The notes: generated by a model from the letters alone, not told the origin. A stretch of 64,000 nt of DNA from a virus (IMGVR_UViG_3300047160_002519:1-64000); one strand, 5' to 3'. Numbered from the stretch's first letter, positions 2,108 through 58,184 are shown. Made by a program: numbers and translations.

Positions 2108-2491
2108 TTGAACTTACACGCGATCGTTGGTCCGATCGTCTCGACGATCAATCCGTCGATCACGATCCAGCTTCAGAAGTCAACCGGCTACGCCACCAAC
2201 GCGGACGGCTCGCGCACACCGGCCTACGCGCCAGCAATCAACGTGACCGCGCAGGTGCAGCCGGAGACATGGCGCGATATTCAACAGATGGACGGCTTGA
2301 ACATCCAGGGCACGCGCAAGGTGATGTACATCAACGGCGCGACCGATGGCCTTGTCCGCGTGTTCGCGATGGGCGGCGATATCGTCACCTTCCCCGATGG
2401 CACGGTCTGGCTGGTCGCGCAGACGCTCGAAGATTTCAGCCTCACGGCAGGATGGACGAAAGCCGCGCTCACCCTGCAGAACGGGAGTTGA
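2108..2491 (+). CDS. Head-closure / head-tail connector protein
   Basis: MNLHAIV...STGY...DGSRTPAY...AQVQ...GGDIVTF...WLV pattern typical of this phage family; synteny. Confidence 0.75.
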   Translation: MNLHAIVGPIVSTINPSITIQLQKSTGYATNADGSRTPAYAPAINVTAQVQPETWRDIQQMDGLNIQGTRKVMYINGATDGLVRVFAMGGDIVTFPDGTVWLVAQTLEDFSLTAGWTKAALTLQNGS

Positions 2492-3007: not shown

Positions 3008-3017
3008 GAGGGACACG

Positions 3018-3647: not shown

Positions 3648-3793
3648 AAGTCTTGGAAGCGTTGCTAGAGCGGCTGCGGACCCCGACCGGGCTGGCGTTC
3701 TTCCTGGCTGGATGCGCGGTTGCGATTTTCCTGCGACGGTACGTGCTGCATGATTGCTGGTCGGCCATCCTCGTCGGTGTCGCATGCCACTGA
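3644..3793 (+). CDS. Small membrane protein (49 aa)
   Basis: ATGA-coupled ORF MKVLEALLERLRTPTGLAFFLAGCAVAIFL..., hand translated. Confidence 0.45.
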   Translation: MKVLEALLERLRTPTGLAFFLAGCAVAIFLRRYVLHDCWSAILVGVACH

Positions 3794-4512
3794 TCAAGAC
3801 CCTCTCGCCCGCGCAATCCGACGCGCAGACCGCGCTCAAAGCGTTCTTGGCCGATCTCTTCCCAACCGGCGAGATGATCGCGGCCCAGGCGAACCGGGTA
3901 CCCGAGCCGCACACGGCGAACTTCGTCCTCATGAGCCTGATCCGCTTCGAGCGGCAAGCCACGAACGTCGATGGGAATAGCGACGTCCGCCTGCAGGGCT
4001 CGATCGCCGCGACCACCCTGACCGTCACGGCGGTCACGCTCGGCACCATCGTCCCAGGAATGCCCCTGTTCGGCCCAGGGGTGGCCTACGGCACGCTGAT
4101 CGTCGCACAGTTATCCGGTAACCCCGGGAGCACCGGGACCTACTCGGTGAGCGTCTCTCAGACGGTGGGAGCCGAGGTTCTATCGGGCGGCACCAAGATC
4201 GTCACGACCAGCTATACCGCGACAATCCAGTGCGACTTCCACTCGGCCGACTATACGGCGGGCAATTGGGCTCAGATTTTCTCGGGACTATTCCGAGACG
4301 AGTACGCCACAACGTTCTTTGCGGGACTTTCGACCGGCGCGACCATCACCCCGCTCTATTCCGACGATGCCGAACAGCGCCCCTTCATTAACGAGAACCA
4401 ACAGTACGAGTGGCGCTGGGTGGTCGATGCCAAGCTTCAGATCGATCAGACGGTTACGGTCCCGCAGACCTACGACGACGCGGTCACGGTGGTGCCCTAC
4501 TTCGTTCCGTGA
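3784..4512 (+). CDS. Tail terminator / neck protein
   Basis: Immediately upstream of sheath; AQANRVPEP...Q.DF...LFRD.Y...PLYSDD..Q.PFIN...QYE.RW. Confidence 0.75.
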   Translation: MPLIKTLSPAQSDAQTALKAFLADLFPTGEMIAAQANRVPEPHTANFVLMSLIRFERQATNVDGNSDVRLQGSIAATTLTVTAVTLGTIVPGMPLFGPGVAYGTLIVAQLSGNPGSTGTYSVSVSQTVGAEVLSGGTKIVTTSYTATIQCDFHSADYTAGNWAQIFSGLFRDEYATTFFAGLSTGATITPLYSDDAEQRPFINENQQYEWRWVVDAKLQIDQTVTVPQTYDDAVTVVPYFVP

Positions 4513-7626: not shown

Positions 7627-9117
7627 ATGGCCACCGTCCTCGACAGCCTCGTGTTGGAGTTCAACCTCGACCCGTCGCAGTTCACGCGAGAGCAGCAACG
7701 CATCCTCGATCAAATCCGCAAGATGCAGGAGGAGGTGAAAACCCGCGCCATCGACATCGAGAGTTCGGTTAAGCGAATCACCAGCACGTTCTCGAACCTG
7801 CAACGCGGCGCGCTCGGCGTGATCGGCGGCTTCTTCGGAGGCGAGGTGCTCAAGACCATTGACGGCTTCGCCCGGATGGAAGCTCAGGTCGGCCGGATCG
7901 CGACCACCATCGGTCTCTCGGCGCAACAAACGCTGGCCTGGGGGAACGCGTTCAAGGCGCTCGGCTACGATACTCAGGCGGGCCTGTCGGCGCTGGCGCA
8001 GACCACCTCCACGATCGAGCAGGGGGCGCTCACCGGAAATCTCAGCGCGGGACTGTTCACGGTATCCCAGGCCCTCGGACGGCAGGGCATGGCACCGATC
8101 AATCTCCTGCGGGGCGGCACCGGACCCGAGGGCCACATGACCGCCCCGGAGGCATGGCTGGCGATCACAAAGCGCCTGGATGAACTCGATATCCAGGGAC
8201 CGAGGCGCGCGGCGTTGCTGGACAAAGCTGGATTGGATCCTTCCACGCGAATGCTGCTGATGGAGGGAGCGCCAGCCATTGCCAAGCTGGTCGCGGAGAT
8301 GCAGCGGCTTGCCCCGCTCACCAAGGAGGAGGCCGACCGGGCGCAGGAGTACGTCAAGAACGTCGCCAAGCTTGATACCGCTTTTTCCCACCTAGGCATG
8401 GTGGTGACCAATCTGGCGACCGGGCCGCTCGCGGCATTCGCGGAGTTCCTGGCGCAATGGCTGGGAGGACAGAGCTCGCAAGGCGCTGGTATCAGCATGC
8501 ATGATTGGATTGTTAATGATTGGATGGGATTTCGTGGTTCGTCGGCAATCAAGGACGCAGCGAAGCGAGCGGCGGGCACCAATGCGGCGGGAGATTTCGC
8601 GGCCGTTACGCAGGGCGGCTACACGGAAGCAACGCCATTCCCGGCGATCCGCCCGGGCGAGGACGCGAACACCGCGCGCATGATCATCGCAGCGGCACAG
8701 CGCGCGGGCATCGATCCGAACATCGCATTGAAGGTCTGGTCGAGCGAAGGGCGCGGGGCCTACACCGGAGACAAGGGAACGTCATTTGGTCCATTCCAAC
8801 TGCATTACGGCGGCGGGCTCGGGGACACCTTCTCGGCCATGACGGGACTGAGCGCGGCCGACCCGCGCACGGTGCCGCAACAGATCGAGTTCGCTATGCA
8901 ACAGGCGAAGCGACTCGGCTGGGGACCGTGGCATGGATGGCATGGCTCTCCGACAGCGGGCGGCGCGGGGCGGCCGGGACCGGCACCCCAGCATACGAGC
9001 TTCAACATCCAGCAAATGAACGTCACCGGCGACAACTCGAAAGAGGTGGCGAGCAACATCGGAAAGCAGGTCGAGCGGATGAAGATCGCCTACCTCGCCA
9101 ACAGCGCAGCGGTGTGA
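7627..9117 (+). CDS. Tape measure protein with C-terminal lysozyme/transglycosylase-like domain
   Basis: MATVLDSLVLEFNLD start, helical Ala-rich body; AA.RAGIDP..ALKV..SEG...SFGPFQL. Confidence 0.85.
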   Translation: MATVLDSLVLEFNLDPSQFTREQQRILDQIRKMQEEVKTRAIDIESSVKRITSTFSNLQRGALGVIGGFFGGEVLKTIDGFARMEAQVGRIATTIGLSAQQTLAWGNAFKALGYDTQAGLSALAQTTSTIEQGALTGNLSAGLFTVSQALGRQGMAPINLLRGGTGPEGHMTAPEAWLAITKRLDELDIQGPRRAALLDKAGLDPSTRMLLMEGAPAIAKLVAEMQRLAPLTKEEADRAQEYVKNVAKLDTAFSHLGMVVTNLATGPLAAFAEFLAQWLGGQSSQGAGISMHDWIVNDWMGFRGSSAIKDAAKRAAGTNAAGDFAAVTQGGYTEATPFPAIRPGEDANTARMIIAAAQRAGIDPNIALKVWSSEGRGAYTGDKGTSFGPFQLHYGGGLGDTFSAMTGLSAADPRTVPQQIEFAMQQAKRLGWGPWHGWHGSPTAGGAGRPGPAPQHTSFNIQQMNVTGDNSKEVASNIGKQVERMKIAYLANSAAV

Positions 9118-9120
9118 GCC

Positions 9121-9891
9121 ATGGTCGCGATCCCTTCAGCCATCAACATCCCGCTTCTATTTTCGGACGCCTCGGACATTCTGCTGGGCGCGCTGCTCCA
9201 GCCGACCTGGGGCGTCTATCTGAACGGGATGCCGGTGCTCTCGCCAGCGCCCTACAATAACACGGGCGGGCTCGCGGGCACGCTGGCAAGCGTGGTGCAG
9301 ATCGCGGGCACGATCGGCAACGTGCTGGGCTCGGTCAACTCGCTGCTCGGCGGCGGCACCGGCGGGGTCTTTCAGGCCCCCGTGGTGCCAGCCATCGCAT
9401 CGACGGTCGAGTTCGAATACCTGCAGGACCTTCCGATCGCGAACTATCCGCAGGAGAACGGGGCCTTCCAAGCCTACAACAAGGCAACGATGCCGTTTTC
9501 GATCCGGCTGCGGGTGTGCTCGGGCGGCTCGGTGTCGGCGCGGCAGGCCTTCCTCTACACATGCCAAGCGATCAAGGACTCGTTTCAACTGTTCACGGTG
9601 ATCACGCCTGAGATGGTTTTTTCGAGTGCGAACTGCTCGCACATCGACTGGCGGCGCACTGCGGATCGCGGCAACACGCTGATTCAGGTGGACTTGACCT
9701 TCGAGCAAGTGCCGATCGTGGCGGCGACCAGCCTGACGAATACGATCGCGCCAGGAGACGCGGGCCAACAATCGATCGGCAGCGTGATCCCGCAACAGAA
9801 TTCATCGGCGGGCTTCACCGCGCCGCTGTTCCAGGGCCAAGGCGTGCCAGGGACCGGGCGGCTGTACGTTTCGCCAGGACCGCCAACGTAA
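9121..9891 (+). CDS. Baseplate/tail-tube initiator (Dit-like) protein
   Basis: IANYPQENGAFQAYNK..P motif; follows tape measure. Confidence 0.7.
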   Translation: MVAIPSAINIPLLFSDASDILLGALLQPTWGVYLNGMPVLSPAPYNNTGGLAGTLASVVQIAGTIGNVLGSVNSLLGGGTGGVFQAPVVPAIASTVEFEYLQDLPIANYPQENGAFQAYNKATMPFSIRLRVCSGGSVSARQAFLYTCQAIKDSFQLFTVITPEMVFSSANCSHIDWRRTADRGNTLIQVDLTFEQVPIVAATSLTNTIAPGDAGQQSIGSVIPQQNSSAGFTAPLFQGQGVPGTGRLYVSPGPPT

Positions 9892-32460: not shown

Positions 32461-32913
32461 ATGAAGCATGGCAACGCAGGAGAGTACGATCGCGTGCGGC
32501 GGCACGCCTCGATCAAGAAGCAAATGGACCGTGAGCGCGAGCGCGGCTTCGAGGAGGAGCCGCGCGACACCGACCGGGTGCAGGCGGCGCTCGATGACTT
32601 CAACGCACGCATGGCTGTGCTGGAGGAGGCCGAGATCAGGGCGAAGGCCGAACGTCTGAAGCACGCGTTCGAGTTCACGATGCGTGCCAACGAAGCGGTG
32701 CTAATCCGGGAGTGGCAGGCCGCCGGTGTCGAGTGCCTGTGGAAGGATCAGCGCGGCGTGCCGACGATGTCCTACTCGCTGGCCAAGATGTTCGGCTGGA
32801 CGATCCGCGAAAAGAACGGCACCCGCACGTTGGTGAAGCCCCCGCCCCCGAGGAAGCCGGAGCGCCGCGAAGCGCCCCAGGAGCCCGAGGACTCGATCAA
32901 GGACACGTTCTGA
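32461..32913 (+). CDS. Hypothetical protein
   Basis: RBS GGAG, coupled to next gene. Confidence 0.6.
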   Translation: MKHGNAGEYDRVRRHASIKKQMDRERERGFEEEPRDTDRVQAALDDFNARMAVLEEAEIRAKAERLKHAFEFTMRANEAVLIREWQAAGVECLWKDQRGVPTMSYSLAKMFGWTIREKNGTRTLVKPPPPRKPERREAPQEPEDSIKDTF

Positions 32914-34469
32914 TGGCGAAGCAACCGGACGCACAATGGCCGACCACGAAAAAGGATTGGTGGCCGCTCAACAAGATCAAGCCATACGAGAAGAACCCGC
33001 GCACACATCCGAAGGACCAGATCGCGCTACTTGCCACGATGATGAAAAAGTTCGGCGTCGACCAGCCAATCGTCGTCGACGAGAAGGGCGTGATCATCAA
33101 GGGGCACGGACGGCTGCAGGCGGCATACGAGGCGGGCTTCACGAGCTTTCCGGTGGTAGTGCATCGCGGACTGTCGGCCGCCAACAAGCAGGCGATGCGG
33201 ATCGCGGACAATCAGGTCGCGCTGCTGTCGGGCTGGGATGACAACTTGCTGCGCACCGAGATGACGACGCTATCAAGCGCCGGGTTCGACATGGCGCTGA
33301 CGGGCTTTGACGGCAAGACGGTGGACCGCCTCATTGGCACCTTCGCCACCCCGACCAAGGACCCAGACGATCGGCCGCCGCTGCCGAAGAAAACCTACGT
33401 CAAGAAGGGCGACCTATTCATCCTGGGGGAGCACAAGATTCTTTGCGGTGATGCCACCGACAAGCAAGCATGGGGCCAATTGATGGGGGATCGGTGGGCC
33501 TCGATGGTTTTTACCGATCCGCCATACGGCGTGAGTTATCTCGATGATGCGATCAAGGGCGATAGCAAGCGGCGGGACGAACTGTTCGGGATGTTGGTGA
33601 AGGCGTTCAAGGAGATGGTGCAGCGGGCTACTGAGACGGCCGCATATTACATTTGGCACGCTTCTAGCACGCGGCGGGACTTCGAGCAGGCCATGCAAGC
33701 GGCGGGTCTGATGGAGCGCCAGTACCTGATCTGGGCGAAGCCGAGCCCGGTGCTCGGGCACGCCGACTATCAATGGGCGCACGAGCCCTGCTTTTACGCG
33801 AGCGATGCAAGGTACGCGCCAACCTTCTACGGCGATCGGGCCGAACAGACCGTTTGGCGGATCGAGGCGGTGCGAAGCAAGACTGAGGCCAGCACGGTCT
33901 TAGGATCGGGGGTGCTCGTGCTGTCGGGGACCGGCATGCAGCTCTGGGTCCAGCCGAAGGCACCGAAGGGCAAGAAGGTCAGGGAAGTACGGTTGACCCA
34001 AAAACTCGAGAAACTCGTACTGACGGACGGCACCGGGACGGGCACGGTCTGGGAGGTGAGCCGGGACCAGGGCACGATCCACCCGACGCAGAAGCCGGTG
34101 GCGCTGGCGACCAGGGCGATCGAGAACTCCAGCCGACCGGGGGATATCGTGGCGGACGGGTTCTCGGGGAGCGGGACCACGCTGATCGCCTGCGAACTGA
34201 CGGGGCGGCGGGCCAGGGTTATGGAACTGGACCCGATCTACGTCCAGGCGGCGGTTGAGAGGTGGGAACAGTTTACCGGCGGCAAGGCGGTCAAGCCCCA
34301 GGTCGAGCAGCCCAAGAAAAAGGCCCCGCGCCGCGCCGCGCGAGGCCGTACAGAAGCCGGGGCGAAGGGCCGCCCCAACGGCAGGGGTCAGGACAGACCG
34401 ACCCCACGGGCCGCCCAAACGGCGCAGAGCCGCTCGACGGTATCCGACAGCGACTCGCCCTCGAACTGA
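32913..34469 (+). CDS. ParB-like N-terminal domain fused to N4/N6 DNA methyltransferase
   Basis: PY.KNPR.H, PIVVD, GHGRL.AA, IADN; DPPY, HPTQKP, DGFSGSGTT. Confidence 0.93.
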   Translation: MAKQPDAQWPTTKKDWWPLNKIKPYEKNPRTHPKDQIALLATMMKKFGVDQPIVVDEKGVIIKGHGRLQAAYEAGFTSFPVVVHRGLSAANKQAMRIADNQVALLSGWDDNLLRTEMTTLSSAGFDMALTGFDGKTVDRLIGTFATPTKDPDDRPPLPKKTYVKKGDLFILGEHKILCGDATDKQAWGQLMGDRWASMVFTDPPYGVSYLDDAIKGDSKRRDELFGMLVKAFKEMVQRATETAAYYIWHASSTRRDFEQAMQAAGLMERQYLIWAKPSPVLGHADYQWAHEPCFYASDARYAPTFYGDRAEQTVWRIEAVRSKTEASTVLGSGVLVLSGTGMQLWVQPKAPKGKKVREVRLTQKLEKLVLTDGTGTGTVWEVSRDQGTIHPTQKPVALATRAIENSSRPGDIVADGFSGSGTTLIACELTGRRARVMELDPIYVQAAVERWEQFTGGKAVKPQVEQPKKKAPRRAARGRTEAGAKGRPNGRGQDRPTPRAAQTAQSRSTVSDSDSPSN

Positions 34470-40414: not shown

Positions 40415-41737
40415 GTGAATGTCCACCCGACCAAATGGGTAGAGTTTCAGCGACCGTCGCTCTACCGCAAACAATTCAAAGCGATCTACGATCCACACCG
40501 TTACTCGCTGATCGAGGCATCGACTAAATCCGGTAAGACATCGGGCTGCATTGCGTGGCTGGTCGAGCAGGCGCTCGCCGGTCATGACGGCATGAACTAT
40601 TGGTGGGTGGCCCCGGTAAGCGATCAATCGCTGATTGCCTTTCGCCGCATGCGCCGCTCGATCGGGCCGAAGAATCACACCGCGAACATTTCGCTCAAGA
40701 CCATCACGCTGCTCAACGGCGCGGTGGTCTGGTTCAAGTCGGGCGACAAGCCCGACAGCCTCTACGGCGAGGACGTCTATGCGTGCGTGCTCGATGAAGC
40801 GAGCCGCATGAAAGAGGAAAGCTACATCGCGGTTCGGACCACGCTGACCTACACGCGCGGCCCGGTGCGCATCATCGGAAATGTCAGAGGGCGCAAGAAC
40901 TGGTTCTACCAGATGGCCCGGCGCGCGGAGCGCGAGACCAAGCTGGGGATCGAGCCGCGCGAGTTGAGCTACCACAAGATCGTGGCGGGCGACGCGGTCA
41001 AGGCGGGCGTGCTTGAGGAAAAGGAGATCGAGGAAGCCAGGGGGCAGATGCCGGAGTCGTGGTTTCGCGAATTGTACTATGCGGAGGCCAGCGACGACGG
41101 CGGCAATCCATTTGGGCAACAGCACATCGACGCCTGCACGCTACCGAACCTGGGCGGGGGCGTCTGCTCGAACAAGCCGCCGCGTGCTTGGGGCTGGGAC
41201 TTCGCCAAGAAGCGGGACTTCTGCGTCGGGATCGGACTCGATGAGGACGGCGCGGTCTGCCGCTTCATCCGGTACCAGGGGGTGCCATGGGGCGAGGTGA
41301 TCAACCGCGTGGTGGCAGAGACCGGCTACACCCCGGCGCTGGGCGACTCTACTGGCGTCGGGGACCCGGTGGTCGAGGATATCCAGCGAAGGCTCTCAGG
41401 AGCCGTTCCGGAGCCCGGTGAGGGGACTTTCCAGGGCTACAACTTCACCAACGCCAGCAAGCAGAAACTCATGGAGGGCCTCGCTGTGGCCATCCAGACC
41501 CGAACCTGCTGGTTTCCTGCGGGCGTCATCAAGGACGAGCTTGAGCAGTTCGAGTACACGATCTCGAAGGTGGGGGTAGTCAAGTACAGCGCGCCGGAGG
41601 GCTACCACGACGACTGCGTGATGGCGCTGGCGCTGGCGCGGATGTGCTTCGCGATGGTGCCCGGGCAAGTCCGGGTATCTCAGGACCTCATCCGGCAGGT
41701 CCGGCAGATGCCCAGGCGGCGACGGATCGGGGGCTGA
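40415..41737 (+). CDS. terL: Terminase large subunit
   Basis: Walker A-like TKSGKT, WWVAP, VLDEA, GWDFAK, HDDCVMALALA. Confidence 0.95.
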   Translation: MNVHPTKWVEFQRPSLYRKQFKAIYDPHRYSLIEASTKSGKTSGCIAWLVEQALAGHDGMNYWWVAPVSDQSLIAFRRMRRSIGPKNHTANISLKTITLLNGAVVWFKSGDKPDSLYGEDVYACVLDEASRMKEESYIAVRTTLTYTRGPVRIIGNVRGRKNWFYQMARRAERETKLGIEPRELSYHKIVAGDAVKAGVLEEKEIEEARGQMPESWFRELYYAEASDDGGNPFGQQHIDACTLPNLGGGVCSNKPPRAWGWDFAKKRDFCVGIGLDEDGAVCRFIRYQGVPWGEVINRVVAETGYTPALGDSTGVGDPVVEDIQRRLSGAVPEPGEGTFQGYNFTNASKQKLMEGLAVAIQTRTCWFPAGVIKDELEQFEYTISKVGVVKYSAPEGYHDDCVMALALARMCFAMVPGQVRVSQDLIRQVRQMPRRRRIGG

Positions 41738-45407: not shown

Positions 45408-48400
45408 ATGGCGAACGGTTGGGGTGGACACCGCAACGGCTCCGGGCGCAAGCGCACGCGCTCCAATGTGATTCCCTTCAAAGCCAAGCCGAAGCTGATC
45501 GAGGCCACGGCGATCGAGCGGCCCCGCCCGATGTTCTCCGACGAATCGGTGCGGCTGATCATTGAAGCGATGAGCGAGCAGCAAGGGCGGGCGCGCAACC
45601 GGCCCCGCACGCCCGATTGGAATCCGTACATCATCCGCCAGCATCTCTTCGGTGCATCTGCGAATCACATCGCGAGGCACAAGCCACAGATGGCAATGGA
45701 TGCGAACCCGGCGCTGGCGGACGCCAACGCGGTCGCGGTGCAGGCGTGGCAGACCGGCGGGCTCGCGGGCAATGACGCGGCCGAAGGGCTGCTGTTCCTG
45801 GGCTACCCGTTCCTTTCCGAGATGGCGCAACGTGCGGAGTTTCGGCTGTTCGGGGAGATCATGTCAGAGGAGATGACCCGCAAATTCATCGACTTCAAAG
45901 GGACTGACGACGAATCCACAAAGGATGAGAAAAAAGACAAGGACAAGGGTCGCGAGGATGATGATGAGCGCGATCAAGACGACATGGCCGGTGATGAGGC
46001 CCCGCAACCGCTGTTCGGGGAGGACCCCCTCAAGCAGGAGGGAGCCGACCCGCTTGGACAGAAGCGCGATGACCCCGAGACCGACAAGGATGAAAAAGAG
46101 GCCCGATCCGACGATCGCAATAAGGAGATCGAACGCAAGATCGTCGAGCTTCGCGAGTTCGCTGACGACATCAAGCTGCGTCAGGTTTTCAAGATGCTGG
46201 CGCAACACGACAGCCAGTTCGGGATCGGTCATCTCTTCCTCGACTTGAAGGGCGCGAACCTCGACGATCCGCGCGACCCCGAGAACCGGATGGACATTGG
46301 TGACGGCCGCAATGACGTCTCGAAGTCCAAGCTATCACGGAACTGCTTGAAGGGGCTGCGCACGATCGAGCCGGTGTGGTGCTATCCGACGCTCTACAAC
46401 GCGACCAATCCGCTGCACCCGTCATGGTACGATCCCCAGGTCTGGTACGTGATGGGAAGCGAGATTCACAAGTCGCGACTGATCCCGCTGATCGGCCGCC
46501 CGGTGCCCGACATCCTGAAGCCCGCCTATGCATTCGGTGGATTGCCGATGACGCAGATGGCGCAGCCCTACGTCGATATCTGGCTGCGCACCCGGCAGAG
46601 CGTCGCGGAGATCATCCACGCCTTCTCGGTAATGGTGCTGCAAACCAACATGGGCACCACGGTGCAGCCGGGCGGATCGAGCGGCGGCGCGGGCGACGTC
46701 GTGGCGCGGATGATGTTGATGAACGCGCTGCGCGACAACCAGGGCATGATGATCATCGACAAGAGCACCGAGGACTTCAAGAACATCTCGGCTCCGCTCG
46801 GCACGCTCGATCAACTGCAGGCGCAAAGCCAAGAGCACATGTACAGTGTGGCGCGTATCCCGGCGGTAAAATGGACCGGGATTCAACCCCAAGGTCTCAA
46901 CGCCACGAGCGAAGGCGAAATGCGCGCCTTCAACGATACCATCCACGGCTATCAAGAGCAGCTATTCAGGACGGCGCTCAACACCATCGTCGACATCATG
47001 ATGATCTCGCTGTGGGGCAAGCGGGACCCAGACATCACGTTCGATTTCGCGGCGCTGCACGAGTTGACCGAAAAGGAGCAGGCCGAAGTCGAGAAGATGA
47101 AAGCCGAGACCGCGCAAATCCGCGTCGACTCGGGGATCGTCAGCCAGGAGGAGATCAGGGGCGTCTTGGTCGCGGACCCGGATTCGGATTTCCACGGGTT
47201 GGACCCGGAGGACACCCCAGACCTGCTGGGAGAGGAGGAACAAGGCCTCATCCCCCCAGGCGCAGGGAAGGCCGAACAGGGCATCCTGGGCGCGGGGGGT
47301 GCAGGTGGACCGCCCCAGCCCGGAAAGCCCCCAGGCGGGCCGCCCCAGGGCGGCAAGGGGCCTTTCAACGCGCCTGCCAAGCCCAAGCGGGCACCAGCAT
47401 TCGGCAAGGACGAAGCCCTGGGCCTTGGAACCGCGTTCCAAGACGCCGAGGGCAAGGACAAGCTCGGCTACTTCGAAGGCCTGGGCAAATTGGAGGTGAT
47501 CCCGGACAAGGACCAATGGCACGCGGAATACATCAGCGACTCTGACACAATCGAGGTGCAGCGAAAGCTGACGTTCGACCCAGCACAAGAGATCGTCCGG
47601 ACCTTGCTGCACGAGGCCGGTCACCGGGGCCAGATGCGGGAGGACAAGGCGGCCTTCCGGAGGTTCAAGAAGGCCAAGCTCGATACCACAGAGCACTTCG
47701 TGGCGCTGGCGAACAACGTCCACCTCGCGGACTTCCGCTGCACCGGGCACATCGAGGACAAGTCGGGCGAGATTTTCTCGGAGAGCTATGCGCACTGGTG
47801 TCTCGACATGCCAATGCCGGAGAAGCTGCAGCGGTTCTGGGACCGCGAGGGCGGTGATCCGATGGCGATGGATGCCGAGTGGGATGAGAGCAAGCATCCG
47901 CGCGATAAGAGCGGCAAGTTCGGCTCCGGCGGCGGGGGTGGGGCAAAAAAAGCTGAAGGCGCGGGAGCCGCCAAGCCAAAAGCCTCCCACCACGGCGGGC
48001 CGAACGCGAGCCCGCAGAAGCCGTTCGCTCCGCTGCACCCGTCGAGCCTGACGAAGGTCTCGGGCAAGATGGGATCGAACGAGGGGGGCGTCTACAAGGA
48101 CAAGGGCGGGCAGGAATACTACGTCAAGCAACCGAAGTCGGCGGCACACGTCACCAACGAGAACACCGCTGCGCGGCTCTACCAACTCACGGGCGCGCAT
48201 ACGCTCGAATACATGGATGCCGGGCCGAAACACGTCGCGACGAAGCTGGAGAAGCTCGTCGCGAACAACGTCAGCCAAATGACGTCCGAGGAGAAAAAGA
48301 CCGCGCAAAAGGACTTCATGACGCACGCATGGCTGGGCAATTGGGATGCGGCTGGGATGGGCGGCGACAATCAGGGTGTCCTCAACGGCAAAGTCACGAC

Positions 48401-50027
48401 GCTCGATGTCGGCGGATCGCTGCTGTTCCGGGCACAGGGCGAACCGAAGGGCGACAAGTGGGGACCGAAGGTTAGCGAGACGCTCACGCTGCTCGACTCT
48501 GGCATGAACCCGGACACGGCGGCGCTGTTCGGCGGCATGACGAAGGATGAGAAGATCGCCAGCGCCAAGCAAGTCACGGAAATTCCGAACAACGCGATCC
48601 GCGAGGTGGTCGCTGCGGGCGGGATGGATGAGGAGATGGCGAACACGCTGATCGCGCGCAAGAACGATATCGCGGCGCAAGTCGGCCTGACACCTGCGGG
48701 CGACACCAATCCTGAGTGGGAAGCGCTGCACCCGCGCGGTCCTGGCGGCAAGTTCGTGGCCAAGCCGGGCGGCGAGGAGCCTGCCGGATTGGGCGGCAAC
48801 GAGCCGAGCCCGACCCCGCAGTTCAAAACTAAGAAGGAATTGGTCGGGCATCTGCTCTCGAACCCCGATGGCGTGACGATGGCCGAGGTGCTCAAGCAGA
48901 CCGGCTGGCCGTCCGTCTCGATGAATGCCCAGGCGGCTGCGATGGGAATGAAACTCGAGAAAAAGAAGGTCGGCGGCGAGGTGAAGTACTTCGGCACGCC
49001 GATGACGGACGCCGAGAAGGCCGATCTCAAGAACAAAGCAAAAGCGAAGCTGGCGAAATCAGCCGCGCCCATTGCGCCCGCGCCGCCACCGAAGCCTGCA
49101 GCAAGCGAGTTTCCGACCCCGAGCCCGGAGGAGGCGACAAAAGCCAAGAAGGGCACGCCACTCAAGATGGCCTACATCCCCGAGCCGAAGCCATTGGTCA
49201 AAGCCAATTTCGACATCGCTGAGAAGATCATCAAAGGCTTCAATGATAAGTGGGCGGGCAAAGAACTGACTGATCCGAAGGAGATCGCGCAGAAGGTTTT
49301 TCATTTCAAGCAGATCGCGGGCGCAATCAACGATATCGGGGCGCAGGAGCAAAAGGATAAGCAGGCCAAGCAGGCGGTCGAGCAGAAAAAGGCCGCCGAG
49401 GAACTCAAGAAAACGCAGGCATCGCAGAAGGGCCAACTCGATGCCTACATGAAGGAACTGGGCATCACCGCGAGCGAGGCACAGGGCTTCCTCGCGCTCG
49501 CCAATATGCACGCGGGATCGAAGGGCGATCTGGTCAAGAAGTTTCAGAGCTACAAGGATCAGGCGGGAAACCTCGGGCTGCCGATCTCGGGATTCCAGTA
49601 CGCACTCTTGCAGGACTACATCGACGGCGGCTACGGCACGATCAACAAGGCGCTACGTGAGGGCGTGATCAGCCAGGAACAGCACGTCTACACCAAGATG
49701 ATGAACAAGGCGCTCGATGCCTTCCCGAAGTTCGAAGGCATGCTGTCACGCGGCACGCATCTCTCCAACCAAGACATCGCGCGCTACAAGCCGGGCCATG
49801 TCATCACGCACCATTCGTTCACCTCGGCTGGCGAAGGCTTCAGTTTCGGCGGCAACGTCCACTACAAGATCAAGGCGATCGGCAAGCGCGGCGCGAACGT
49901 GCAGGCGGTCAACCCGCACGAGAAGGAAATCATCTTCAAGGCCAACACGCAGTTCTTGGTCAAGAGCGTCGAGACCAAGGGCGGCAAGACCACCATCGAG
50001 CTAGAGGAGATGGAGGACTATGGCTAA
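45408..50027 (+). CDS. Portal protein (DUF1073-like) fused to metallopeptidase, kinase-like, DUF3489-like and ADP-ribosyltransferase domains
   Basis: FLGYP.L.E.AQR.E.R, IH.SRL, PD.LKPAY.FGG, IP.VK..GI.P.GLNATSEGE; then HEAGH; GSNEGG/YVK/WLGNWD/DVGGSL; R-S-ExE. Confidence 0.92.
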   Translation: MANGWGGHRNGSGRKRTRSNVIPFKAKPKLIEATAIERPRPMFSDESVRLIIEAMSEQQGRARNRPRTPDWNPYIIRQHLFGASANHIARHKPQMAMDANPALADANAVAVQAWQTGGLAGNDAAEGLLFLGYPFLSEMAQRAEFRLFGEIMSEEMTRKFIDFKGTDDESTKDEKKDKDKGREDDDERDQDDMAGDEAPQPLFGEDPLKQEGADPLGQKRDDPETDKDEKEARSDDRNKEIERKIVELREFADDIKLRQVFKMLAQHDSQFGIGHLFLDLKGANLDDPRDPENRMDIGDGRNDVSKSKLSRNCLKGLRTIEPVWCYPTLYNATNPLHPSWYDPQVWYVMGSEIHKSRLIPLIGRPVPDILKPAYAFGGLPMTQMAQPYVDIWLRTRQSVAEIIHAFSVMVLQTNMGTTVQPGGSSGGAGDVVARMMLMNALRDNQGMMIIDKSTEDFKNISAPLGTLDQLQAQSQEHMYSVARIPAVKWTGIQPQGLNATSEGEMRAFNDTIHGYQEQLFRTALNTIVDIMMISLWGKRDPDITFDFAALHELTEKEQAEVEKMKAETAQIRVDSGIVSQEEIRGVLVADPDSDFHGLDPEDTPDLLGEEEQGLIPPGAGKAEQGILGAGGAGGPPQPGKPPGGPPQGGKGPFNAPAKPKRAPAFGKDEALGLGTAFQDAEGKDKLGYFEGLGKLEVIPDKDQWHAEYISDSDTIEVQRKLTFDPAQEIVRTLLHEAGHRGQMREDKAAFRRFKKAKLDTTEHFVALANNVHLADFRCTGHIEDKSGEIFSESYAHWCLDMPMPEKLQRFWDREGGDPMAMDAEWDESKHPRDKSGKFGSGGGGGAKKAEGAGAAKPKASHHGGPNASPQKPFAPLHPSSLTKVSGKMGSNEGGVYKDKGGQEYYVKQPKSAAHVTNENTAARLYQLTGAHTLEYMDAGPKHVATKLEKLVANNVSQMTSEEKKTAQKDFMTHAWLGNWDAAGMGGDNQGVLNGKVTTLDVGGSLLFRAQGEPKGDKWGPKVSETLTLLDSGMNPDTAALFGGMTKDEKIASAKQVTEIPNNAIREVVAAGGMDEEMANTLIARKNDIAAQVGLTPAGDTNPEWEALHPRGPGGKFVAKPGGEEPAGLGGNEPSPTPQFKTKKELVGHLLSNPDGVTMAEVLKQTGWPSVSMNAQAAAMGMKLEKKKVGGEVKYFGTPMTDAEKADLKNKAKAKLAKSAAPIAPAPPPKPAASEFPTPSPEEATKAKKGTPLKMAYIPEPKPLVKANFDIAEKIIKGFNDKWAGKELTDPKEIAQKVFHFKQIAGAINDIGAQEQKDKQAKQAVEQKKAAEELKKTQASQKGQLDAYMKELGITASEAQGFLALANMHAGSKGDLVKKFQSYKDQAGNLGLPISGFQYALLQDYIDGGYGTINKALREGVISQEQHVYTKMMNKALDAFPKFEGMLSRGTHLSNQDIARYKPGHVITHHSFTSAGEGFSFGGNVHYKIKAIGKRGANVQAVNPHEKEIIFKANTQFLVKSVETKGGKTTIELEEMEDYG

Positions 50028-50286
50028 ACGACCCCCGAACCGCAGCATGGAAACCGACGATGTGCCGCTCGGGATGTTCGGCGGCGAACTCGACAGCGTA
50101 CCGCTTGCGGAGTTTGAAAATCGCCGCCGCGAGCGCAATGACTACGAAAAGCACTGGGACGAAGTGATGCGGCTGCTCGAACGCACCGGCGAGGACCAGC
50201 CAACTGAAGTCGACCTCGACGCGATGAGCCCCGAGGAGTTGGAAGATTTAATAGCAGGGCTGGACGAAAAGCCGGGCAAGGGATAA
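50020..50286 (+). CDS. Small acidic protein coupled to the portal-ART gene
   Basis: 8-nt overlap, RBS GGAGG, D/E-rich. Confidence 0.65.
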   Translation: MAKRPPNRSMETDDVPLGMFGGELDSVPLAEFENRRRERNDYEKHWDEVMRLLERTGEDQPTEVDLDAMSPEELEDLIAGLDEKPGKG

Positions 50287-51259: not shown

Positions 51260-52042
51260 ATGAAGCGGCCGAAAACCCTGCGCGCGATCCAGCCGAACGC
51301 GGGCATCGCGGCGGCATACGAGGGCAAGCTGCGGCGTGCGATCGAGGCGATGATCAAATCTTATTCATGGTGGGTGACGGCAGCCTACCGCGCGAATCCA
51401 CCCGCCACCATGGCCATGGACTCGTTCCGCGATCTGGAGAAGGCGCTGCGCCAGCTTGGCATCGCCTGGGAAAAGAAGTTCGACCGGATGGCAAAGGAGA
51501 TGGGCGAATACTTCGCGATCGCGCTTGCCAAGCGGGACAAGCAACAAATCCATGCCATCATGAAAAAGGCCGGGTGGACGGTCCCCTACAAGAAAACCCG
51601 GGCGATGAACGAAGTGATGACCGCGATCACCGCCGAGAATGTCGCGCTAATCAAAACCATCCCGAAACAATTTCACGGCAAGATCGAGCCGATGGTGATG
51701 GCCTCGGTTGCGGCCGGGCGTGACATCGGCACGCTGCGCAAGCAACTCCAGAGCACTTTCAAGGTCACGCGGACGCGAGCCACGCTGATCGCGCGCGACC
51801 AGAACAACAAGGCGACAAACCAGCTTGCGCGCGTGCGCTACATGGGGATGGACCTCAAGCAAGCGGTATGGATGCACTCCCACGCGGGAAAAACGCCCCG
51901 CAAGAGCCACCTCGCAAACCACGGAAAAACCTTTAATCTTGATACCGGATGGTTTGATCCGGATGAGCGGAAATGGATATTGCCGGGGTTTTTGATAAAT
52001 TGCCGCTGCACGATGCGGCCAGTGGTGGCGGCGTTTACATGA
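51260..52042 (+). CDS. MuF / head morphogenesis protein (SPP1 gp7-like)
   Basis: ENV.LIK.IP, RA.LIARDQNNKA, W.HS...PR.SH, PG..INCRC. Confidence 0.92.
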   Translation: MKRPKTLRAIQPNAGIAAAYEGKLRRAIEAMIKSYSWWVTAAYRANPPATMAMDSFRDLEKALRQLGIAWEKKFDRMAKEMGEYFAIALAKRDKQQIHAIMKKAGWTVPYKKTRAMNEVMTAITAENVALIKTIPKQFHGKIEPMVMASVAAGRDIGTLRKQLQSTFKVTRTRATLIARDQNNKATNQLARVRYMGMDLKQAVWMHSHAGKTPRKSHLANHGKTFNLDTGWFDPDERKWILPGFLINCRCTMRPVVAAFT

Positions 52043-53551: not shown

Positions 53552-55990
53552 ATGATCCCGCAGCTATCCACCGTTCCGAATGCAGGACTCCCGGCGGGCT
53601 ACCGCAAGAAAACGCCCAACGGCAACGCGCGCATGGGCGCGGGGATCATGTTCACGAACGACGAAGGCAAGGCGCTGTTCGTTCGCCGCAGCAAGGAGGC
53701 AAGCGATCACCAGGGTGAGTGGGCTTTTCCTGGCGGTCACGTCGAGGAAGATGAGGAGCCCGCAGATGCAGCTCGTCGAGAGGCCATGGAGGAGGTTGGT
53801 CATATCGAGGGGTGGGACCTTGCGCCGATCCACCGCGAGACCTCGAATGAGGATCACGTGGATTTCACGACATTCGGTCAGCCTGTCTCAATGGAGTTTA
53901 AGCCCCGCCTCAATCATGAACACGATGCCCATGAATGGTGCGATCCTGCTCATCCTCCTGAGCCTTTGCACCCCGGCGTTGCTTCTTTGCTTGCTCGCTT
54001 TTTCAAGGAGGAAGCCCGAGAACCAGAGCACGCGGGAGACCAAAGAATGAAGGCGGCCAAGAAGGACGTCGCCTACACCGACTACGCCTCGGACCAATCC
54101 GAGCGCTGCGGCATCTGCCGCGCCTTCAATGAGGACAAGTGCAAGAAGGTGGCGGGCGTCATCGAATCGTCCGGGTGGTGCAAGCTGTTCTCTCACGTCC
54201 CGATCGGCGCGACTGATTCGCAGTTGGTCCTGGCGCTAGATGCCACGGTGCGGAGTTTCGACACGGACGGCCGGATGCGGGTGAGCCGGACCAACATCTC
54301 GAAGGCGACCGTCAATCCGTACCGGGGCGAGGAAATCCCGACCTGGGAGGCGCTCGGCCTGATCCCCGACAAGGTCTATCAGATGTATCGCCCGGCGCAT
54401 GAACTGGCGCTCGGCGCAAAAACGTTCAACAGCGTGCAACTGCTGAAAAAGCACACGCCAGTGGACATCGAAGATCACAAGATGTGGGACATCGTAGGCA
54501 CCACCGGGAGCGACGCGGAGTTCGACGGGACCTACCTGACTAATTCGCTTTCGGTGTGGGCGAAGGAAGCGATTGACTTCATCGAGTCCGGGGCACAGCG
54601 GGAGTTGAGCTGCGGCTATCACTATGTCCCGGTAATGACACCCGGCATCTTTGATGGTAAGCCTTACGACGGTGTCATGACCCAGATCGAGGGAAATCAT
54701 GTCGCTCTCGTTGAGGAAGGCAGGGCGGGGCACGACTGTGTCGTCGGAGACTCGGCCCTCTCTCAGAGGGACAGCAAGATGACCAAGCCAACTCGCCTCG
54801 AACATGCAGTCCTAACGCGCACTGCATCTGCGATCAATCCGCTTCTTGCCAAGGACGCCAAGGTCAACTACGCCCCGCTGTTCAAAGGGCTCACCACCAA
54901 GAATTTCAAGGAACGCAGGCCCGCCATCGTCGAGGGCATGCGCAAGCTGATCAAGGGCAAGACGATTGCCCAGGACGCCTCGATCGAGCATCTGGCGCAT
55001 ATGCTGGATCACTTCGAGCACGCACCCGCGATTGCGGACGAATCGGTGTCCGGTTCGCAGCACCGCGCCATGGAGGCGGCGGCGCACGGCCACTCGACGC
55101 TCGGCATCCCGAAAAATGTGGGTGAGGAGTTCTCGAAGGCCGACAAGGGAAAGACGTTCGGGGACATGATTCGCGACTGGGCGGCCGCGAAGGACTGGAA
55201 TGCCGGAATGTCCGATGACGACTTCTCGGCTTTGGACAAGATGCACTCCGACTGCAAGGATGGAGCCATGGGCGGACGCGACAAAGAAGAGACCCCCGAG
55301 GAATTCGAGAAGGCCGAGCACGAGATCGGTGGAGGCGAGGATCGCCGCGCTGATGACCGGCGAGGAGGCCGCGACCGGCGAGGCCACGATCGCCGCGCCG
55401 ATGATGAGGAGGAGGAAGGCGGCGAGGAATTTGGCAAGTTTCATGAGAAGGAAGGCGAGGACGAATGGGAGGACAAGGAGGACGAGGGCGAGGATCAACT
55501 CGAAAACCTCGGCTCCGCTGCCCGCGACCGTCGCGCCGACGACCGGCGAGCGGATGATCGTCGCGATGCGCGCGATCGCCGCGATGGCTATGATCGCAAG
55601 GGCGGCCGTGACAAGAAGGGCGCGAAGGATGCCGCGCTGACCCAGGATTCGGTCAACAAAATGATCGAGGATGCCAGGATGCAGGAGCGCAGGCGGGCCA
55701 AGAACGCCAACGCCGCGCGCGAGTTCATTCGGCCCTATGTCGGTGCCGTCTCGATGGCGCTCGATTCCGCGGAGCAGGTCTTGCGGGCTGGCGCGAAGGC
55801 GCTGGAGATCGAGAATGCCGACAAGCTGCACCCGGACGCGCTCAAGCCGCTGATCAAGATGACCGGCGACATGCGGATGCGGCGCGTGGAGTATAATGGC
55901 GGCGAACTGGCGATGGACACCGATATGAAGGATGACGGTATCGCCAAGTTCAACAATATGTTCGGGGCAGACCGCATCAAGACGGTCTGA
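53552..55990 (+). CDS. Nudix + HiPIP-like + DUF2213 prohead protease + scaffold polyprotein
   Basis: Nudix box GGHVEEDEEPADAARREAMEEVG; CxxC..C..GWC; ISKA.VNPY.G.EIP, RELSCGY, GNHVALVEEGRAG; acidic scaffold. Confidence 0.92.
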   Translation: MIPQLSTVPNAGLPAGYRKKTPNGNARMGAGIMFTNDEGKALFVRRSKEASDHQGEWAFPGGHVEEDEEPADAARREAMEEVGHIEGWDLAPIHRETSNEDHVDFTTFGQPVSMEFKPRLNHEHDAHEWCDPAHPPEPLHPGVASLLARFFKEEAREPEHAGDQRMKAAKKDVAYTDYASDQSERCGICRAFNEDKCKKVAGVIESSGWCKLFSHVPIGATDSQLVLALDATVRSFDTDGRMRVSRTNISKATVNPYRGEEIPTWEALGLIPDKVYQMYRPAHELALGAKTFNSVQLLKKHTPVDIEDHKMWDIVGTTGSDAEFDGTYLTNSLSVWAKEAIDFIESGAQRELSCGYHYVPVMTPGIFDGKPYDGVMTQIEGNHVALVEEGRAGHDCVVGDSALSQRDSKMTKPTRLEHAVLTRTASAINPLLAKDAKVNYAPLFKGLTTKNFKERRPAIVEGMRKLIKGKTIAQDASIEHLAHMLDHFEHAPAIADESVSGSQHRAMEAAAHGHSTLGIPKNVGEEFSKADKGKTFGDMIRDWAAAKDWNAGMSDDDFSALDKMHSDCKDGAMGGRDKEETPEEFEKAEHEIGGGEDRRADDRRGGRDRRGHDRRADDEEEEGGEEFGKFHEKEGEDEWEDKEDEGEDQLENLGSAARDRRADDRRADDRRDARDRRDGYDRKGGRDKKGAKDAALTQDSVNKMIEDARMQERRRAKNANAAREFIRPYVGAVSMALDSAEQVLRAGAKALEIENADKLHPDALKPLIKMTGDMRMRRVEYNGGELAMDTDMKDDGIAKFNNMFGADRIKTV

Positions 55991-56030: not shown

Positions 56031-56999
56031 ATGCCCGGCGGATTCCAGACGCAAGTCTACAATCAGGAAGCCCAGGCCGTAGCAGGCGACCGCGCTTCGC
56101 AGAACCCGATCGCGACGCTCGATGCAGGGCCCGGCGGACTGATCGCTGATCCCGGTGGCATCATCATCGGTAACTTCGCCTGGACCACGCCCCCGACTGA
56201 TCCAGACGGCTCGAACAGCTACGCGACCCAGGTCAACGGCGCGGGCAATGTTGCTGGCCTTGCCTACAATTGGACGCAAGGGCTCAACACGGTGTTCTTG
56301 TCGGACGCCTCGATGCTGATCCCGCAGGGCTTGCCCGTGGCGCTGGCGGTGCAAGGTGATTTCTGGGTGGTGAACAACGGCTCTACGTTCGCTGCCCCAG
56401 GACAGAAGGCGTTCGCGGCCTTCGGCACCGGCGCAGTGTCGTTCGGCGCGGCGGGCTCGGTCACGGTGACCTCGGCGGCGTCGGGCTCCTCGATCGCGGC
56501 CTCGACCTTCTCGGCTACGGGCTCGATCCAGAATGACATCATGACGATCACGGTAGTCGGCGCTGGCACGCTGGTTCGTGGTGCGACGATCTCCGGCACC
56601 GGCATCAACGGCTCACCGACGATCACCGGGCAGTTGAGCGGCACTCCGGGCGGCGTCGGTACCTACACGATCTCCCCGAGCCAGCAGAAGGCGATCGCCT
56701 CCGAAACCATCTCGGGCACCTACGGCACGATGACGGTCGGCACGATGACGACGGGCACGGCGTTCTCGGTCGGGCAGACGCTGCAGGCGACTGGCGCGGT
56801 GGTTGCGGGCACGCAAATAACGCAGCTTTTGACCGGCTCCGGCGGCAATGGCTCGACCTTCGCGGTGAACAACAACACCGTGGTCTCGTCCCAGGTCATC
56901 AATGCGCTTGGCGCTGCCGAAACGAAGTGGACGGCGGCGAGCGCGGGCAATCCGGGCGGCTTGGTCAAGATCACGTCGTGGGTAGGCTCGCAGGGCTGA
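56031..56999 (+). CDS. Head decoration/cement protein with two inserted beta modules
   Basis: FQT.V...A.AVAGD.AS.NP, G.FAW, GDFWV, ETKW; immediately upstream of MCP. Confidence 0.8.
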   Translation: MPGGFQTQVYNQEAQAVAGDRASQNPIATLDAGPGGLIADPGGIIIGNFAWTTPPTDPDGSNSYATQVNGAGNVAGLAYNWTQGLNTVFLSDASMLIPQGLPVALAVQGDFWVVNNGSTFAAPGQKAFAAFGTGAVSFGAAGSVTVTSAASGSSIAASTFSATGSIQNDIMTITVVGAGTLVRGATISGTGINGSPTITGQLSGTPGGVGTYTISPSQQKAIASETISGTYGTMTVGTMTTGTAFSVGQTLQATGAVVAGTQITQLLTGSGGNGSTFAVNNNTVVSSQVINALGAAETKWTAASAGNPGGLVKITSWVGSQG

Positions 57000-57032: not shown

Positions 57033-58184
57033 ATGGAACCCATCAGCATCAGGTCCGTGGATGAGGGCCGCGCCCTGTTTCGGCAACACCGGCAGTACCT
57101 CGCGGATCGCGGTGTACATTTGCCCTATCAGATGCAGCGCTATCTCACTGACAGGGAGAAGGCGACGGGCAATCTGATCATGGCGATGGACGCCCCGAAC
57201 CCGCCGATCGCACCGATGGGCGCGCTGCCCGGGCCGCTGTCGAGCGACCCGAACGCGGCGCTGCCGTGGATGCTGACCTCGGCTATCGACCCGGAGATTA
57301 TCCGGGTGATCTTCTCGCCGCTCGATTTCGCGGAAATCCTGGGGGAGAGGAAGGCAGGCGACTGGACCGAACAGACCCGCTTCTTCCCGCTCGTTGAGGC
57401 GACCGGCGAGGTGTCGAGCTACGACGACTTCGTCAATAACGGCCGCGCCGGGGCGAACTTCAACTACCCGCAACTGCAGAGCTACCTGTTCCAGACCATC
57501 GTCAACTACGGCGAGTTGCAGATCGCGCGCGCTGGCTTGGCGAAGATCAACTGGGTCTCGGAACTGGGGCTGGCAGCGGCGGATCTGCTCAATCGCTTCC
57601 AGAACCTCTCCTATGCGTTCGGCGTGGCAGGCCTGCAGAACTACGGCGTGATGAACAATCCCTTTATCTCGTCCGCGCTGACCCCGGCAACGAAGGCCTG
57701 GGGCGGAACCGGGTGGTTCAATGCCGGATCGCCCGCGGCGACCGCCAACGAAGCCTACAATGACATCGTCGCGATGGTGACGCAGTTGGTGGCGCAGACC
57801 AACGGCGCGATCAACATCAAGGACTCGATGACGCTGGCGATGAGCCCGCAGAGCGAGATCGCCATGACCTTCGCGAACAGCTTCGGCGTTTACGTCGAGA
57901 ACCTGCTCAAGAAGGGCTACCCGAACCTGAAGGTCAAAACGGCCCCGCAGTACGGCCAACAGAACACGAATAACCCGCAGGGCTACTCGGCCGCTGGTAA
58001 CGTGCTGCAGCTTTGGCCGGACAAGATTCAGGGACAGACGGTGGTCTACGCGGCCTACAATGAGAAGCTGCGCAGCCACAAGATCATTCCGGACCTGTCA
58101 AGCTGGAAGCAAAAGCAGACCTCGGGCACGTGGGGTACGGTCATCCGCATGCCGGTCGGCTTTGTCACAATGATTGGTGTTTAG
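57033..58184 (+). CDS. Major capsid protein (DUF2184-like)
   Basis: GE.K.GDW, E.TGEVSSY.D, QSY.FQT...YGE, FGVAGLQNYG..N.P, QK.T.GTWG. Confidence 0.93.
   Translation: MEPISIRSVDEGRALFRQHRQYLADRGVHLPYQMQRYLTDREKATGNLIMAMDAPNPPIAPMGALPGPLSSDPNAALPWMLTSAIDPEIIRVIFSPLDFAEILGERKAGDWTEQTRFFPLVEATGEVSSYDDFVNNGRAGANFNYPQLQSYLFQTIVNYGELQIARAGLAKINWVSELGLAAADLLNRFQNLSYAFGVAGLQNYGVMNNPFISSALTPATKAWGGTGWFNAGSPAATANEAYNDIVAMVTQLVAQTNGAINIKDSMTLAMSPQSEIAMTFANSFGVYVENLLKKGYPNLKVKTAPQYGQQNTNNPQGYSAAGNVLQLWPDKIQGQTVVYAAYNEKLRSHKIIPDLSSWKQKQTSGTWGTVIRMPVGFVTMIGV

Follow-up and report, generated by a model that had tools for sequence, protein, structure and literature searches.

A portal gene that continues into a train of predicted effector domains

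What is a phage portal protein doing with four further domains behind it? The question is raised by a + strand gene at 45408-50027 of IMGVR_UViG_3300047160_002519, of which positions 1-64000 (64,000 nucleotides, hereafter the window) were analyzed. The source is a complete soil-phage genome from IMG/VR (73,233 bp, direct terminal repeats, CheckV completeness of 100%), and the gene encodes a protein in which a portal is followed, within one open reading frame (ORF), by a Pro/Gly linker, a zincin-like module, a kinase-like domain, a DUF3489 winged helix, a middle region and an ADP-ribosyltransferase (ART). Our data establish the identities of these domains, the conservation of their predicted catalytic residues, the recurrence of the architecture and the presence of a common junction motif, and we consider it fairly probable that the protein is a portal with a polyvalent cargo train that would be cut in the head, ejected and used to modify host proteins early in infection. 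The initial annotation, made from the sequence alone, had reported this ORF and the motifs of each domain, and all of them are found where it had placed them. The parts of the gene are as follows.

45408..50027, +: whole portal-cargo fusion gene, 1539 amino acids (aa), stop codon included (read from sequence)
45408..45701, +: N-terminal 98 residues ending in M95-A96-M97-D98, candidate propeptide for the head protease
46110..47117, +: portal core, PF06381 Phage_portal_3, residues 235-570 (Pfam)
47241..47402, +: Pro/Gly-rich linker, residues 612-665 (read from sequence)
47433..47852, +: zincin-like module, residues 676-815, with H735-E736-x-x-H739, E788 and E792
47862..47921, +: junction 1, M819-A820-M821-D822 / A823, then the tag EWDESKHPRDKSGKF to F838
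48015..48695, +: atypical protein-kinase-like domain, residues 870-1096, with K907, E918, D980, D987-N988 and D1000
48696..48755, +: junction 2, A1097-G1098-D1099 / T1100, then the tag variant NPEWEALHPRGPGGKF to F1116
48819..48974, +: DUF3489-type winged helix, residues 1138-1189 (PF11994)
49158..49532, +: poorly conserved middle region, residues 1251-1375 (66 homologous segments aligned)
49533..50024, +: R-S-ExE ART, residues 1376-1539, with R1448, S1473 and E1505-x-E1507

An alternative GTG start lies at 45351, from which the + strand frame is open to 50027; the ATG at 45408 is favored because it fits the conserved N-terminus of relatives, MxxxWGGxRxGxGRK. The portal assignment is strong, with a PF06381 score of 222.4 bits (cut-off 33.8) that covers profile positions 37-356 of 357, and the fusion protein is also matched by phrog_146 (portal) with an E value of 7e-88. 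The fusion gene is the one place in the complete 73,233-bp genome where the PF06381 model matches. A portal ahead of the Pro/Gly linker, as had been proposed, is borne out. The nearest solved structures by sequence match to the Protein Data Bank (PDB) are E217 gp19 (8fvh and 9b41, E 4e-33) and the Pam3 portal (2e-12), and by this similarity the protein is a homologue of portals solved as dodecamers in the virion. E217 gp19 is modeled for residues 97-528 of 765 and its C-terminal helical barrel juts into the head (PMC10329688), while in the Pa193 portal residues 94-528 are modeled, the first 93 were undetected by liquid chromatography-mass spectrometry and residues 529-765 are without density (PMC11456595). 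These structures indicate that the portal family tolerates a long C-terminal extension that begins inside the capsid. Two further observations concern the region ahead of the portal core: a basic conserved N-terminus, WGGxRxGxGRK, sits upstream of the first MAMD site, and a long, strongly charged insert rich in Asp, Glu and Lys occupies residues ~165-250 (45900-46150, +).

The cargo domains and their predicted catalytic residues

In the module closest to the portal, the motif LLHEAGH places H735 at 47610 and the downstream GEIFSESYA holds E788 and E792, giving an HExxH helix plus a downstream Glu in which either E788 or E792 would bind zinc. H735, E736, G738, H739, E788 and E792 are invariant in 27 aligned sequences, and an AlphaFold2 (AF2) model with a predicted local distance difference test (pLDDT) score of 94.1 comprises a helix, three strands and the HExxH helix. 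The best-ranked Foldseek rows were zinc peptidases, namely anthrax lethal factor, selecase, PprI, abylysin, PPEP-1, SPRTN and ArdC. Run as a profile against the PDB, the peptidase alignment drew a chance pilin match alone (E 0.097). The Pfam model for MPTase-PolyVal, PF18818, matches just two of the 27 family members at E ≤ 0.01. From the model and these conserved residues, and in keeping with the earlier zincin call, we read the module as a zincin-fold peptidase that is akin to PF18818 yet distinct from it. A profile built from four peptidase segments retrieved 63 proteins with the module, 14 of which carry a precomputed PF06381 match (several being portals of ~750-800 aa) and three a precomputed MuF match. 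Among the 120 long relatives listed, for which domain counts come from segment labels made in this analysis, the peptidase is present in four, the query included.

The next domain spans 48015-48695 and contains all of the blocks GSNEGG, YYVK, NE..A..LY, WLGNWD, DN and DVGGSL. Its AF2 model (pLDDT 94.9) has the Helicobacter pylori kinase CtkA as its top Foldseek match (E 5.7e-6, template modeling score 0.58), followed by VPS34, TTK, JAK2 and aminoglycoside phosphotransferases; overall, the fold is nearest to CtkA, CotH and PI4KII. On this model the domain has a two-lobed protein-kinase-like fold, which upholds the earlier suggestion of a fold like those of HipA and PI4K. Relatives show little or no variation in the GSNxGG loop, K907, E918, D980, D987-N988 and D1000, and on sequence and predicted secondary structure these are the putative Gly-rich loop, beta-3 Lys, alpha-C Glu, catalytic loop and DFG-like Asp. 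Profile libraries were largely silent. A Pfam scan of the cut-out segment gave no match even at E 10, with HipA (PF07804 and PF20613) and PI3/PI4 (PF00454) models included, and NCBIfam yielded nothing for the domain, TIGR01555 falling far under its cut-off and XopAI being weak. In the Atlas the domain lies in unnamed clusters, with HipA_2, PI3_PI4 and LepB_N as the nearest named ones at 0.91-0.92. When alignment A1 was run as a profile against the PDB, the matches fell on the ART parts of other members, and the kinase-like part drew none. The family is large: an exhaustive phmmer search with the domain brought up 3,770 representative proteins at E ≤ 0.001, of which 2,429 remain at E ≤ 1e-10. 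Predicted viral structures with the domain include Gordonia phage proteins and giants labeled 'ADP-ribosyltransferase', and in a sample of fetched proteins it frequently stands directly upstream of the ART.

Two side observations bear on where this domain travels. In relatives it is also found between Nudix and DUF2213. BFVD entry A0A6J5S481, whose 1201 aa bear the name of an HK97-type portal, contains it as well, a hint that kinase-like cargo may travel on a second portal family.

The DUF3489-like unit proposed in the initial annotation was recovered exactly at the threshold. PF11994 scores 29.5 bits against a cut-off of 29.5 on the cut-out segment (E 8e-7); when the full-length protein is searched the score is 23.7 bits, and membership is borderline by sequence score. 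Whole-protein Pfam searches were weak for the cargo in general, and cutting out segments improved DUF3489 only. The relative P0003 carries a precomputed PF11994 match, and 58 homologous DUF3489 segments could be aligned. In the middle region that follows, the sole conserved patch across the 66 aligned segments is FN.KWAGK.

The ExE motif marks arginine-directed ADP-ribosyltransferases, and the C-terminal region holds GGY..IN..LR, SRG (R1448), FTS (S1473) and EKE (E1505 and E1507). A phmmer search of the PDB with this region matched Tre1 (6dre_B) at E 2.3e-5 and Vis at E 0.017, and R1448, S1473 and E1507 align with the Tre1 motifs. These three residues do not vary among 18 sequences; across 131 aligned segments their conservation is at least 95%, and that of E1505 at least 80%. 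Many relatives also carry precomputed PF03496 or PF01129 matches. As had been called from the motifs, the domain belongs, by sequence, with the R-S-E clade of ADP-ribosyltransferases and has the predicted catalytic motifs. Because each segment of the cargo has many relatives with invariant motif residues, the domain train as a whole goes beyond what chance would produce.

A-x-D sites and tags at the cargo junctions

We next consider how the cargo domains are joined. At junction 1, the residues D822, E827, H830, P831, R832, G836 and F838 are invariant in 18 aligned portal-cargo relatives, and junction 2 is also present in P0003, P0004 and P0010. The cargo tag that follows A-x-D has the consensus (W/F)xExxHPRx3GKF. 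Across 297 fetched proteins the pattern HPRx(2-6)Gx[FWY] occurs 292 times, with Glu at -3 in 96% and Trp or Phe at -5 in 89%, and [AGS]xD lies within eight residues upstream of 193 of the 249 unique (W/F/Y)xExxHPR tags, compared with 10% for 8-mers drawn at random from these proteins; Ala occupies P3 in 173 of the 193. In the same 18 relatives, A96 and D98 at the end of the candidate portal propeptide are invariant and M97 nearly so. A looser candidate site may lie after the linker at G666-K667-D668 / E669, where the sequence resembles the PxFGAxD junction of relatives.

Related sites occur in other proteins of the head module. Five head proteins together contain the pattern [LIMV]A[LM]D seven times, where 0.41 occurrences would be expected; none of 5000 shuffles reaches seven. 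Four of the seven sites are exactly MAMD (twice in the portal, once each in the MuF and capsid proteins). The sites and the genes that carry them, apart from the fusion gene, are listed below.

51260..52042, +: MuF head protein, unfused, 260 aa, MAMD at residues 51-54
53552..55990, +: Nudix-Cys4-DUF2213 head-maturation protease/scaffold protein
57033..58184, +: major capsid protein, MAMD at residues 50-53; phrog_264 matches residues 70-383
45690, +: [LIMV]A[LM]D site, portal residues 95-98
47862, +: [LIMV]A[LM]D site, portal residues 819-822
51410, +: [LIMV]A[LM]D site, MuF residues 51-54
54230, +: [LIMV]A[LM]D site, protease residues 227-230
55754, +: [LIMV]A[LM]D site, protease residues 735-738
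55907, +: [LIMV]A[LM]D site, protease residues 786-789
57180, +: [LIMV]A[LM]D site, capsid residues 50-53

The capsid MAMD precedes the capsid-family match, which begins at residue 70. In the DUF2213 protein, LALD / A (227-230) falls exactly at the Nudix/DUF2213 boundary, and LAMD / T is found close to the end of the protein, 23 residues short of the C-terminus. In 16 of 28 related loci with a capsid homologue, the stretch ahead of the capsid match contains A-[MLFCV]-D-[AS], the other 12 stretches being too short to judge. In Pbunavirus LMA2, which stands in for E217 on equal portal and capsid protein lengths alone, A-M-D occurs at capsid residues 62-64 (gene at 8240-9388) and portal residues 70-72 (gene at 2150-4447), positions that agree with the N-termini left unmodeled in the E217 and Pa193 structures. 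The E217 capsid model begins at residue 66, and its authors propose a possible N-terminal cleavage (PMC10329688). Taken as sequence evidence, these patterns make it likely that the head protease cuts the cargo junctions.

Recognition of the tag by the fused metallopeptidase was also considered and rejected. In the best 80 of 573 related IMG/VR loci, which were read as stop-to-stop ORFs, some of them clipped at contig ends, tags occur in 37 and the peptidase module in none, and the junction is therefore independent of that module.

A proposed route into the host and its alternatives

In T4, Alt and the internal proteins are packaged, cut by the prohead protease and ejected. By analogy with T4 Alt, and following the polyvalent-protein hypothesis, we infer that the cargo described here would be ejected and act on host proteins. 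With the portal C-terminus facing into the capsid, each prohead would incorporate twelve cargo trains. The DUF2213 head-maturation protease would then cut after Asp at D822 / A823 and D1099 / T1100, and possibly at D668 / E669 and D98 / A99, freeing in the head a kinase fragment of ~29 kDa and a winged helix-turn-helix (wHTH)-ART fragment of ~48 kDa, each starting with a tag. The peptidase might also be released, at the looser FGKD668 / E669. The fragments would exit with the DNA and, early in infection, phosphorylate and arginine-ADP-ribosylate host proteins. Loading of the cargo into the head is plausible because the E217 portal barrel points inward and the junction site is shared with the capsid propeptide. 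A precedent for packaging is provided by phi24B, whose large polyvalent protein gp47 was detected in virions by proteomics (10.64898/2026.04.10.717836).

Should the cargo be freed and ejected in this manner, about a dozen kinase molecules and as many arginine ADP-ribosyltransferases would reach the host from each virion ahead of any phage gene expression, amounting to a head-borne takeover or anti-defense kit like that of T4 Alt and loaded via the portal itself. The common junction yields concrete candidate cut sites for virion mass spectrometry and suggests a route for loading foreign proteins into phage heads. More speculatively, and with rather less confidence, the portal may be a programmable 12-copy loader in which any module placed behind an A-x-D site and tag is freed by the head protease, the tag steering retention or ejection, and in which the kinase-like domain, from a very large family lacking a Pfam or NCBIfam model, could act together with the ART on one host target.

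Several points weigh against a processed and ejected cargo. Cleavage, packaging, ejection, targets and enzyme activities are all predictions, and the protease label of the DUF2213 protein comes from PHROG annotation and Iyer 2022. The portal-to-peptidase junction carries no tag, and the tag at junction 2 has a W-to-H spacing one residue below the usual. The C-terminal 237 portal residues of E217 and Pa193 are without density, which fits either loss or flexible retention (PMC10329688, PMC11456595). Query scores for the cargo domains are also low: PF18818 reaches 24.0 bits (cut-off 27.5), PF03496 15.6 (cut-off 23.4) and PF01129 9.8 (cut-off 22.3), and Foldseek gave no match for the peptidase model at E ≤ 0.001. 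The kinase catalytic residues were assigned via sequence and predicted secondary structure. Finally, the single portal match in the genome comes from a search with the PF06381 model, and a portal of another family may also be present.

The best surviving alternative, though an unlikely one, is that the cargo is never ejected, because it remains attached to the portal dodecamer, or because it is freed but kept in the head, for assembly or internal roles, the peptidase aiding maturation or the bulk internal protein organizing DNA. A domain tethered to the portal cannot exit without cutting, and the missing tag between portal and peptidase, the recurrence of portal-plus-peptidase proteins of ~750-800 aa and a Pbunavirus C-terminal extension that is invisible yet possibly present are all consistent with retention. 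Against this, the ART, kinase and wHTH have no obvious substrate inside the capsid and their predicted catalytic residues are invariant. Moreover, the same modules ride on MuF, protease and free-standing giant proteins, which indicates a host-directed payload.

Somewhat less likely again is a polymorphic-toxin-like role late in the cycle, in the producing cell or after lysis, such as has been proposed for MuF toxins; the portal would then be no more than a scaffold for expression or assembly from which the enzymes are cut. Temperate phages carry toxins fused to MuF, one of them an active ART, EFV (PMC5576092), and the cargo of related portals varies strongly, from 0 to 1467 aa, as in polymorphic toxins. 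Related loci, by contrast, have no conserved small immunity-like ORF behind the ART, and the junction site is that of the capsid and portal propeptides, which ties cutting to the prohead.

That the domains are decayed remnants, now forming an inert internal head protein, is improbable. The several query family scores under curated cut-offs would fit decay, but in alignments of 18 to 251 relatives every predicted catalytic residue shows little or no variation, and the AF2 models of both the kinase-like domain and the peptidase are confident.

The fusion recurs among related phages

Among the 120 listed relatives, a PF06381-type portal is present in 75, and portal, kinase-like domain and ART occur together in 69. 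One of these relatives, P0003, lies on another contig of 68 kb and has the entire architecture including the peptidase, its cargo being 59% identical to that of the query. Comparison of the C-terminal cargo among related portals, which the initial annotation had called for, shows that in the best 80 loci the ORF runs at least 100 aa past the portal match in 45 and fewer than 70 aa in 34, with the kinase-like domain in 13 and the ART in 10. None of 725 cultured-phage records covers at least 80% of the fusion protein; isolates such as Dolphis hold the kinase-like and ART parts separately and distant from the head genes (gp117).

Soil metagenome runs from four studies supplied Logan contigs that lie on the gene free of mismatches and bridge 47202-47936, 47315-47754, 47769-48008 and 48545-48915. 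These contigs are short (depth 2-7), several bins are uncovered, and the best-covering run may be the source sample. In run X3, one depth-2 contig, probably a chimera, joins 47944 back to 45591 with 39 foreign letters between. It is very unlikely that misassembly or a frame error has joined an ordinary portal gene to a separate polyvalent-protein gene: although no single contig from other runs covers the entire gene and the back-joint in X3 would suit such an artefact, contigs from other runs bridge the four intervals above without a mismatch, 69 independent relatives show the same order in one ORF, and P0003 repeats the whole arrangement; the fusion seems genuine.

Relation to known systems

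Iyer et al. 2017 define polyvalent proteins and describe ARTs and a kinase group among their domains, the commonest being the MPTase (PMC5512222); MPTase and ART are together the commonest polyvalent domains (PMC5512222, PMC9503650). The protein studied here is a phage-type polyvalent protein in that sense, as it combines at least two conflict-type domains (four in this case) within a head module, and, like others of its kind, it ties them in one polypeptide to head packaging. The same authors report PBECR, 2H and InPase domains fused to portal domains, for example in BcepF1.124 (PMC5512222), and term PBECR fusions to MuF and portal the simplest architectures; they also report Nudix fusions to MuF, portal and capsid-processing peptidase as well as ART fusions to portal (PMC5512222, PMC9503650). 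The fusion of Nudix to a capsid-processing peptidase is the arrangement found here at 53552-55990. Their kinases are without the C-terminal subdomain and come mainly from Verrucomicrobia-Chlamydia and Bacteroidetes (pro)phages (PMC5512222).

The portal as an effector carrier is accordingly already published. The initial annotation had implied novelty in the dodecameric portal, not the MuF protein, being the carrier; the MuF gene is indeed unfused (51260-52042, 260 aa), whereas the novelty of the portal carrier fails because portals fused to effector, Nudix and ART domains are on record (PMC5512222, PMC9503650). Unlike the portal fusions of Iyer et al. (PBECR, 2H, InPase, Nudix and ART), four domains stand here behind a PF06381 portal, and the combination of an A-x-D site with an HPR tag is not found in the accessible text of that work. 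Literature word searches returned no paper on a four-domain portal train, the HPR tag or the kinase-like family, with the limit that a differently written motif would escape them. Newer here are the succession of four domains, the seldom-seen insertion of a protease and the kinase-like family of ~3,770 representatives without a Pfam or NCBIfam match. With the general principle in print, the finding is mainly a well-documented new example from a complete genome, and the kinase-like family, abundant in phage polyvalent proteins and without a curated Pfam or NCBIfam model, offers a target for biochemistry.

Comparison with T4 shows both likeness and difference. T4 Alt is likewise an arginine-type ART, and head carriage, delivery with the DNA and processing by a head protease are proposed here in the same way. 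Unlike the fusion, Alt is a separate gene product with an N-terminal capsid-targeting sequence, and the T4 prohead protease cuts at L/I-x-E sites, which differ from the A-x-D sites proposed here.

The Pbunavirus portals of E217 and Pa193 (gp19) belong to the same portal family (E 4e-33) and share a myovirus head module with MuF, a DUF2213-type protease and a related capsid protein. In them too the barrel is followed by a long C-terminal extension and the N-terminus is unmodeled (PMC10329688, PMC11456595), and A-M-D occurs in the N-terminal regions of Pbunavirus portal and capsid proteins. Unlike the cargo of the fusion protein, the Pbunavirus extension is 237 aa of a different domain, has no HPR tag and no cryo-electron microscopy density (PMC10329688, PMC11456595), and is without a kinase-like, DUF3489 or ART domain. 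MuF polymorphic toxins resemble the fusion in having the N-terminus of a head protein, a variable C-terminal enzyme or ART and an adjacent portal gene (Jamet et al. 2017, PMC5576092); they differ in that the MuF protein is unfused here and the 12-copy portal is the carrier.

Among solved proteins, Tre1, an ART of the Serratia type VI secretion system (PDB 6dre and 6drh), is the best match for the ART sequence, and CtkA (PDB 3akj-3akl) is the best match for the kinase-like fold, at 14-17% identity. The delivery routes of both differ from that of phage cargo, and targets cannot be read across from them.

Genomic neighborhood

The surroundings of the fusion gene form a myovirus-type structural module, with sheath and baseplate genes present elsewhere within the window. 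In addition to the head genes given above, the neighborhood contains the following.

40415-41737: large terminase (TerL)
56031-56999: decoration-like protein

The DUF2213 protein at 53552-55990 has a Nudix domain at its N-terminus plus a Cys-rich segment. Directly behind the fusion gene lies an 88-aa acidic ORF (50020-50286, +), its start codon overlapping the stop codon of the portal gene. This ORF gave no family match and has no homologue across the 80 related loci, in which a search for a conserved immunity-like ORF after the ART likewise found none. Farther upstream, at 32712-34469 (+), a DNA methyltransferase is joined to a ParB-like nuclease domain (phrog_498 and phrog_620).

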